Sequence record: OR845888.1
Direction: 5' to 3' (one strand)
DNA from: Escherichia phage ECO95 1-6-1
Length of the DNA stretch: 1,511 nt
Shown: in pieces, positions 328-736 of the stretch
Numbering within the stretch: the first letter of the stretch is position 1
How the letters are laid out: each line of letters begins with the position of its first letter
Translations under genes and position numbers: made by a program
The notes under the pieces: generated by a model
Told to the model about the DNA's origin: nothing
Seen by the model: only the letters and a program-made list of their open reading frames with translations
Database searches by the model: none

Positions 328-531
328 TTACTCTCCCTCTTCCTCTTCAAATAAGACGTTAGCGTCAGCCGCTAGAGTCCATGTATACCAGCCCTCATGC
401 TCAATATCCAGCTCAGTACCATTATCATCAAGGATGTAGGTACGGCTCTCATCTCCATCCTTCTTAACATGGTATAGGTCGCCAACAGTTAAGGCCCAGA
501 ATTCAGTAGTCTCGTAGCATTCTAAGAACAT
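328..531 (-). CDS. Small acidic hypothetical protein, 67 aa (paralog B); C-terminal part of the track ORF 328..708
   Basis: Internal ATG at 531..529 preceded by GGAG with a 7-nt spacer (minus-strand TTGGAGATTAATTATG), lying 14 nt after the TGA stop of the upstream gene (545..547). Product MFLECYETTEFWALTVGDLYHVKKDGDESRTYILDDNGTELDIEHEGWYTWTLAADANVLFEEEEGE: 19 D/E against 3 K/R, acidic tail EEEEGE. Shares the motif IE-x-x-G-[WY]-YTWT-[LF] with the adjacent gene. The 5' extension to 708 overlaps the neighbouring gene by about 160 nt in another frame and translates to S/T/P/L-rich sequence, so it is judged non-coding. Confidence 0.65.
   Translation of the reverse strand: MFLECYETTEFWALTVGDLYHVKKDGDESRTYILDDNGTELDIEHEGWYTWTLAADANVLFEEEEGE
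377..389. repeat. 13-nt exact direct repeat gtccatgtatacc, copy 1 (copy 2 at 621-633)
   Basis: Identical 13-mers at 377-389 and 621-633 encode WYTWT and GYTWT in the two acidic paralogs. Confidence 0.6.
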
Positions 532-544
532 AATTAATCTCCAA

Positions 545-736
545 TCACTCAACCAAGAAAGATACGTGCTTACCATTAATGTCGGAGCAACCGTAATAAC
601 CGTCACCTTCATCACGGAAGGTCCATGTATACCCTGAATCTGCCTCGATGTAGCACAGGTCAGCTGAGAGGGTAAATTCATACTCATTAAACAGGGTGAA
701 GTGTTCATTAGATTTAACGCAAGTTGCAGTAATCAT
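545..736 (-). CDS. Small acidic hypothetical protein, 63 aa (paralog A)
   Basis: Track ORF. ATG at 736..734 overlaps the TAA stop of the upstream lipoprotein gene by 1 nt (TAATG), with GGAG 8 nt upstream. Product MITATCVKSNEHFTLFNEYEFTLSADLCYIEADSGYTWTFRDEGDGYYGCSDINGKHVSFLVE: 11 D/E against 3 K/R. Contains GYTWT encoded by the same 13-nt string as WYTWT in paralog B. Confidence 0.7.
   Translation of the reverse strand: MITATCVKSNEHFTLFNEYEFTLSADLCYIEADSGYTWTFRDEGDGYYGCSDINGKHVSFLVE
621..633. repeat. 13-nt exact direct repeat gtccatgtatacc, copy 2 (copy 1 at 377-389)
   Basis: Second copy of the 13-mer at 377-389, here encoding GYTWT in paralog A; read directly from the sequence. Confidence 0.6.

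Follow-up and report, generated by a model that had tools for sequence, protein, structure and literature searches.

Among the early proteins of T7-like phages are small acidic ones that bind host proteins, for example Ocr/gp0.3 and Gp2; Ocr is helical. In Kagunavirus, SZH-1 gp22 (YP_010749227.1) and Bas74_0063 (XPK43227.1) are 72-aa proteins that are 57-60% identical to residues 1-67 of the small acidic protein described here, the product of a gene that we call A. The locus analyzed is a 1,511-nt stretch of Escherichia phage ECO95 1-6-1 (record OR845888.1; "the window" denotes this whole stretch). The ORF listing of the window contains a 126-aa ORF at 328..708(-) and, overlapping it, a 63-aa ORF at 545..736(-) (gene B). 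A first-pass annotation had judged that the longer ORF is probably over-extended and that its true start is likely the ATG at 531 (ATG-531), and on both points homologue N-termini, closure of the frame in relatives, substitutions, a codon model and Shine-Dalgarno (SD) pairing all agree. Gene A almost certainly occupies 531..328, starting at ATG-531, and the 126-codon frame is in all likelihood a mechanical longest-ORF artefact. A literature search found no relevant work.

Results

Five unannotated GenBank phage records match the 1511-base window at 99.9% identity, among them OR844702 (Escherichia phage ECO104 4-5-2, 43 kb). As OR844702 carries genes for a single-subunit RNA polymerase (PF00940, E = 9e-92), a nozzle protein and a portal of T7 type, the phage is a T7-like podovirus (Autographivirales). 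Its sole annotated relative at the DNA level is a Slopekvirinae phage (79% over 244 nt). It should be noted that the GenBank batch (OR847174 and OR848645 are among the matches) includes two records named 'Listeria phage' and one named 'Salmonella phage'; because these are 99.9% identical to a coliphage segment and are UNVERIFIED_ORG or unannotated, the batch's host labels look unreliable. The minus strand carries every gene of the window, and the features are as follows, largely in transcription order:

1501..1349, minus strand: 50-aa ORF, first in transcription order
1319..1291, minus strand: sigma70-like promoter TTGACT-17-TATAGT, upstream of gene A
1084..983, minus strand: 33-aa hydrophobic ORF, after the promoter in transcription order
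975 or 981..736, minus strand: 79/81-aa ORF, matching phrog_19819
736..545, minus strand: gene B, 63 aa, member of phrog_3249
708..532, minus strand: 59-codon extension of the long ORF, read as spurious (gene B and the spacer out of frame)
544..532, minus strand: B-A spacer of 13 nt, with the SD GGAG at 541..538
531..328, minus strand: gene A, 67 aa plus a TAA stop at 330..328, backed by homologues, codon model and substitution pattern
1..325, minus strand, ATG at 325: 5' part of the gene for a Rha-family regulatory protein (PF09669 Phage_pRha, E = 8.4e-12)

In the full genome, the Rha-family protein is 251 aa long (complete ORF at L001 5504..6259), and its gene has the SD GGGAGAG (-8.9 kcal/mol). 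The 36-nt element AAATAGTTGTTGACTTCCCTGATTTAAGTAGTTATA, which contains the sigma70-like promoter, is present as a single copy in the window, at 1293..1328 (-); in the five near-identical GenBank records it occurs twice, exactly, 317 nt apart (L001 4184-4219 and 4501-4536), and the paired copies flank a 78-aa ORF absent from the window. Either the repeats mediated deletion of a promoter-gene cassette or the assembly collapsed. The 33-aa ORF at 983..1084 (-) is very hydrophobic (MRNAMYMLVILPLLLLQWAAPFLVIYALIKLFS) and has a good SD, AAGAGGA (-5.8 kcal/mol), and one relative has an annotated 33-aa gene in the matching position; the product of the ORF is probably a small membrane peptide. For the 81-aa ORF (736..981), GTG-981 has no SD and ATG-975 has a GAGG SD (-6.9 kcal/mol), so that here, too, the listed start may lie two codons too far upstream. 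This ORF, which matches phrog_19819, has an N-terminus (MTTFKIWFFGALAGTVLMLSC) resembling a signal peptide that ends in Cys, and its product may be a lipoprotein.

The long ORF and gene B overlap over 545..708, that is, by 164 nt (about 160 nt in the first-pass annotation, which had correctly placed them in different frames: (736-708) mod 3 = 1). The ATG at 531..529 is codon 60 of the 126 codons. Gene B ends in a TGA at 547..545, and the sequence from there to the start of gene A reads TGA-TT-GGAG-ATTAATT-ATG; the GGAG SD recognized earlier is thus present, and the distance from the upstream stop, given then as 14 nt, is 13 nt (544..532), an immaterial difference. At ATG-531 the anti-SD duplex is worth -6.4 kcal/mol (spacer 6), equal to the value for gene B, vs +1.2 kcal/mol at ATG-708 (i.e., no SD), and at the other upstream in-frame starts it is never better than -3.9 kcal/mol, this best duplex being badly spaced. 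The 126-codon ORF is listed because a 'first start after a stop' rule yields it.

A word-indexed search with the 126-aa ORF gave zero matches, and an exhaustive HMMER search, in which the whole 126-aa ORF was run against 1.84 billion representatives, together with a profile search, was needed to recover the relatives of gene A. The HMMER search found four true relatives (P0001, P0002, P0004 and P0006), and in these, query residue 60 aligns with the relative's own residue 1 or 2; for example, query residues 60-123 align with residues 1-63 of P0001 (63 aa) and residues 60-126 with residues 1-67 of P0002 (72 aa). The N-terminal comparison that the first-pass annotation had named as a check on the start thus comes out in favor of ATG-531, as true relatives align from residue 60 and lack residues 1-59. 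The match to P0005 is confined to the C-terminal half, and its N-terminus is unrelated. Matches of P0003, P0007 and P0008 to extension residues 1-59 were rejected, these being internally repetitive, non-homologous proteins at 26-43% identity. The profile search brought in P0022-P0028, with P0025 at 79-81% identity. Over the family, searches with the 126-aa query give E-values between 7e-19 and 7e-6, the profile search reaches 3e-36, and identity to A is 43-81% over 90-100% of its 67 residues, with full-length similarity from the N-terminal M-F/L-L-E-C onward; W12, L14, T15, Y20, D25, Y32, D35 and D36 are invariant (alignment A4). These alignments place A in an uncatalogued family of coliphage proteins 63-72 aa long, most of which have an acidic C-terminal tail.

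The DNA around the relatives was inspected at nine loci (L003-L007 and L010 (viral and metagenome contigs), L011, L016/L017 and L018). At each, the homologue has its ATG at MFLEC or MLLEC (MFYAEL in the distant L018) behind a purine-rich SD (GGAG or GAGAGGAGAG in eight loci, GAGGG in L018), and at 9/9 the upstream in-frame reading is shut within 5-13 codons, without a start codon. L011 and L016/L017 share the B-then-A arrangement, including the 13-nt spacer, and therefore provide the fairest comparison. In RefSeq SZH-1 gp22 and in Bas74_0063, the annotated start is the equivalent of ATG-531. An additional locus from a metagenome scan, L008, was discarded as a spurious high-GC match (48% over 31 aa).

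The two parts of the long ORF differ in composition. The 59-residue extension (peptide MNTSPCLMSMNLPSQ...) has a pI of 8.9 and contains 44% S+T+P+L, in line with its earlier description as S/T/P/L-rich, vs 22% in the 67-residue core. The A protein itself, MFLECYETTEFWALTVGDLYHVKKDGDESRTYILDDNGTELDIEHEGWYTWTLAADANVLFEEEEGE, is small and acidic, as the first-pass annotation had it, with a pI of 4.05, a net charge of -16, 19 D/E and 3 K/R.

Gene B matches phrog_3249 over its full length (E = 1.4e-23, residues 1-63 against profile positions 1-65 of 65) and has 12 homologues at 59-98% identity, with substitutions biased to third positions. On this evidence gene B is a real 63-aa gene, and, since it is conserved in another frame, region 545..708 is already accounted for. 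Between the window and four relatives, differences in the overlap number 10-13/11/22-28 at B codon positions 1/2/3; they fall mostly on B third positions, and the majority therefore strike position 2 of the long-ORF frame. Over the overlap, the B frame shows 69-75% amino-acid identity vs 33-45% for the long frame, and in relatives having the B-then-A order the extension frame contains 1-3 stops. In gene A, by comparison, differences from the 79-81% identical relative L016 number 8/6/28 at codon positions 1/2/3. Under a codon model trained on 20 long genes of the phage, the extension scores best as a +1 offset, and A, B and the 79-aa gene score best as coding; a comparison of codon usage across the frames, also proposed at the outset, therefore places the extension out of frame and A in frame. 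The sole base difference from OR844702 in 1328 nt, at ~586 (-), changes B codon 51 from Thr to Ser (of the 12 homologues, 10 have Thr at this residue, one has Asn and one Arg). The substitution alters the B protein but leaves the long-frame translation unchanged; as a single site it is uninformative. In 27.4 kb of the phage's long genes there are 10 same-strand stretches of 67 codons or more that are open in an alternative frame, so a long open frame is expected by chance. Taken on these substitution and codon patterns, the upstream 59 codons are gene B read one base off, stop-free by chance in this phage only.

Two further readings of the upstream frame were weighed. The long ORF could be a recent overprinted gene, or could give rise to an N-terminally extended isoform of A, starting from ATG-708 or internally, given that the frame upstream of ATG-531 is open for 67 codons, offers eight possible starts and is identical across the five near-identical GenBank records. 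However, these five records are 99.9% identical, and the intact long frame in all of them therefore carries no evolutionary weight, and open alternative frames this long occur about 10 times per 27 kb of the genome. An overprinted gene would be expected to keep an open and constrained frame in diverged relatives and to have an initiation signal of its own; the frame is shut in every diverged relative, with the stops noted above, substitutions strike its second codon positions, its codon usage is that of out-of-frame reading, and its upstream starts all lack an SD (ATG-708 at +1.2 kcal/mol, the best duplex at -3.9 kcal/mol with poor spacing). We regard an overprinted gene or extended isoform as very improbable. 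Alternatively, B and A might be fused by programmed ribosomal frameshifting, with ribosomes slipping from B into the A frame, which lies one base off B and is open over almost all of B in this phage. This fusion was rejected because a slippery site is absent (gene B contains no canonical in-frame X XXY YYZ heptamer and no homopolymer run of at least 5); in addition, the A frame of relatives is stopped within B, the last stop being 11 codons before A's ATG, and A is found without B in Kagunavirus and Christensenvirus and B without A in L012-L015. The chance of such a fusion appears negligible.

A third possibility, which leaves the short start right, is that A and B are tandem paralogues, descended by duplication of a small acidic beta protein, and paralogy of A to the gene at 545..736 had indeed been claimed at first. 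In size the A and B proteins are close (67 and 63 aa), both are acidic (pI 4.05 and 4.30), and both are predicted, at low confidence, to be all beta with seven strands in weak AlphaFold models (pLDDT 66 for A and 58.5 for B); they have an IE...YTWT motif in common, and hhalign of the two family profiles produces a collinear alignment (P = 0.008). Yet BLASTP of A vs B returns no alignment at E <= 100, and IE...YTWT is the only Smith-Waterman match (p = 0.046 against shuffles), in a register that conflicts with that of hhalign, and YTWT is not kept within family A, the 72-aa members reading GYGRWA. The hhalign probability is 5%, and the score is 17.3 vs 22.6 for a reversed-B control, with 1.5% of column-shuffled B profiles attaining the observed score; since reversed B outscores B, the A-B profile signal is best described as composition and beta-pattern noise. 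Moreover, phrog_3249 is absent from the PHROG matches of A, and A and B are distributed independently across phages. The claim of paralogy is thus not supported, and tandem duplication seems improbable; the similar size, acidity and predicted all-beta content might conceivably reflect a remote fold relationship.

The product of gene A was compared with catalogued families and folds. Pfam and PADLOC gave no matches, and a PDB sequence search gave matches at E >= 0.04 only. Foldseek with the A model gave nothing at E <= 0.001; frataxin (E = 0.56, TM 0.41), the top PDB fold match, and the top BFVD fold match (E = 0.35) were set aside as noise, and the gene B model was too poor for a fold search. 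Over these same searches (Pfam, PADLOC, PDB sequence at E < 0.04 and Foldseek at E <= 0.001), A has no similarity to a characterised inhibitor. Against PHROG, the best match is phrog_14592 (E = 0.0039).

What lies directly downstream of B varies among relatives. The slot is occupied by A in L011 (1050-1241) and L016/L017, an unrelated acidic 63-aa protein (MEIKLVKFEDLDCDG...) in L012 (1628-1819) and KilA-N/ANT genes in L013-L015 (e.g., L013 1204-2013 and L015 2707-3393). Family A, in turn, occurs in three unrelated coliphage groups, namely the T7-like podovirus and its relatives, Kagunavirus and Christensenvirus (L020, L021 and L022); the Christensenvirus copy sits amid tail genes, and neighbourhoods differ between the groups.

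Discussion

The start correction at 531 is an ordinary annotation fix, a matter of annotation hygiene, and in itself makes no open question testable. Left in place, the long start would record a 126-aa protein with a false S/T/P/L-rich N-terminus and an apparent overlapping gene, and would mask the similarity to the family of 63-72 aa. The right start places A in a small acidic accessory family spanning unrelated coliphages, where it is a sensible, if unremarkable, candidate for functional screens of early phage genes.

An early-region location of gene A is indicated by the RNA polymerase encoded by the phage, the sigma70-like promoter upstream and the small ORFs beside the Rha gene. Genes B and A are separate coding units of this early operon, each conserved independently in relatives, and B terminates at its TGA. 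In the scheme that we favor, ribosomes would initiate 13 nt further on, at ATG-531 behind the GGAG, and these may be freshly loaded ribosomes or ones that have just terminated on B (coupling).

The presence of A homologues in three unrelated lineages points to horizontal transfer of a small accessory gene, and this distribution, together with the variable slot downstream of B, fits a mobile, dispensable accessory gene. Going by position, charge and mobility, the leading candidate role for A is to bind, early in infection, a protein of the host or of a defence system, with its acidic surface and acidic C-terminal tail making the contact, although we hold even this to be less likely than not. 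A more doubtful proposal is that A is a horizontally mobile counter-defence or host-takeover factor, in which mimicry of nucleic acid, or the blocking of a host sensor, might fall to the acidic surface or tail.

How does A compare with known systems? The phrog_14592 'virion structural protein' and large repeat proteins (P0009 and P0003) contain a beta-hairpin repeat, xxYVKDDxGDTELYYxDDxGNxVQIT, that the A core LYHVKKDGDESRTYILDDNGTELDI weakly resembles; BLASTP against single repeats gives E = 3e-5 for the pair, and the E-value is 2.7e-4 by phmmer and 0.0039 for phrog_14592. Identity is only 27-28%, however, and the likeness is that of a common hairpin motif, not of membership; the hairpin repeat itself matches SH3-like and DUF families only, below threshold. 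The phrog_3249 family (B) resembles A in being a small acidic protein, encoded in the early operon that also holds A, but is without demonstrable sequence relationship to it. Ocr/gp0.3 and Gp2 differ from A in that no sequence or fold likeness was detected and in that the helical Ocr contrasts with the all-beta prediction for A; what they have in common with A, that is, an early region behind host-type promoters, small size and strongly negative charge, is an analogy of context only. The Kagunavirus homologues SZH-1 gp22 and Bas74_0063 belong to a siphovirus lineage and have another neighbourhood, no gene B, a tail that is 5 residues longer and GYGRWA where A has GWYTWT, but they share with A the MFLEC N-terminus, the GGAG-type SD and the acidic C-terminal tail.
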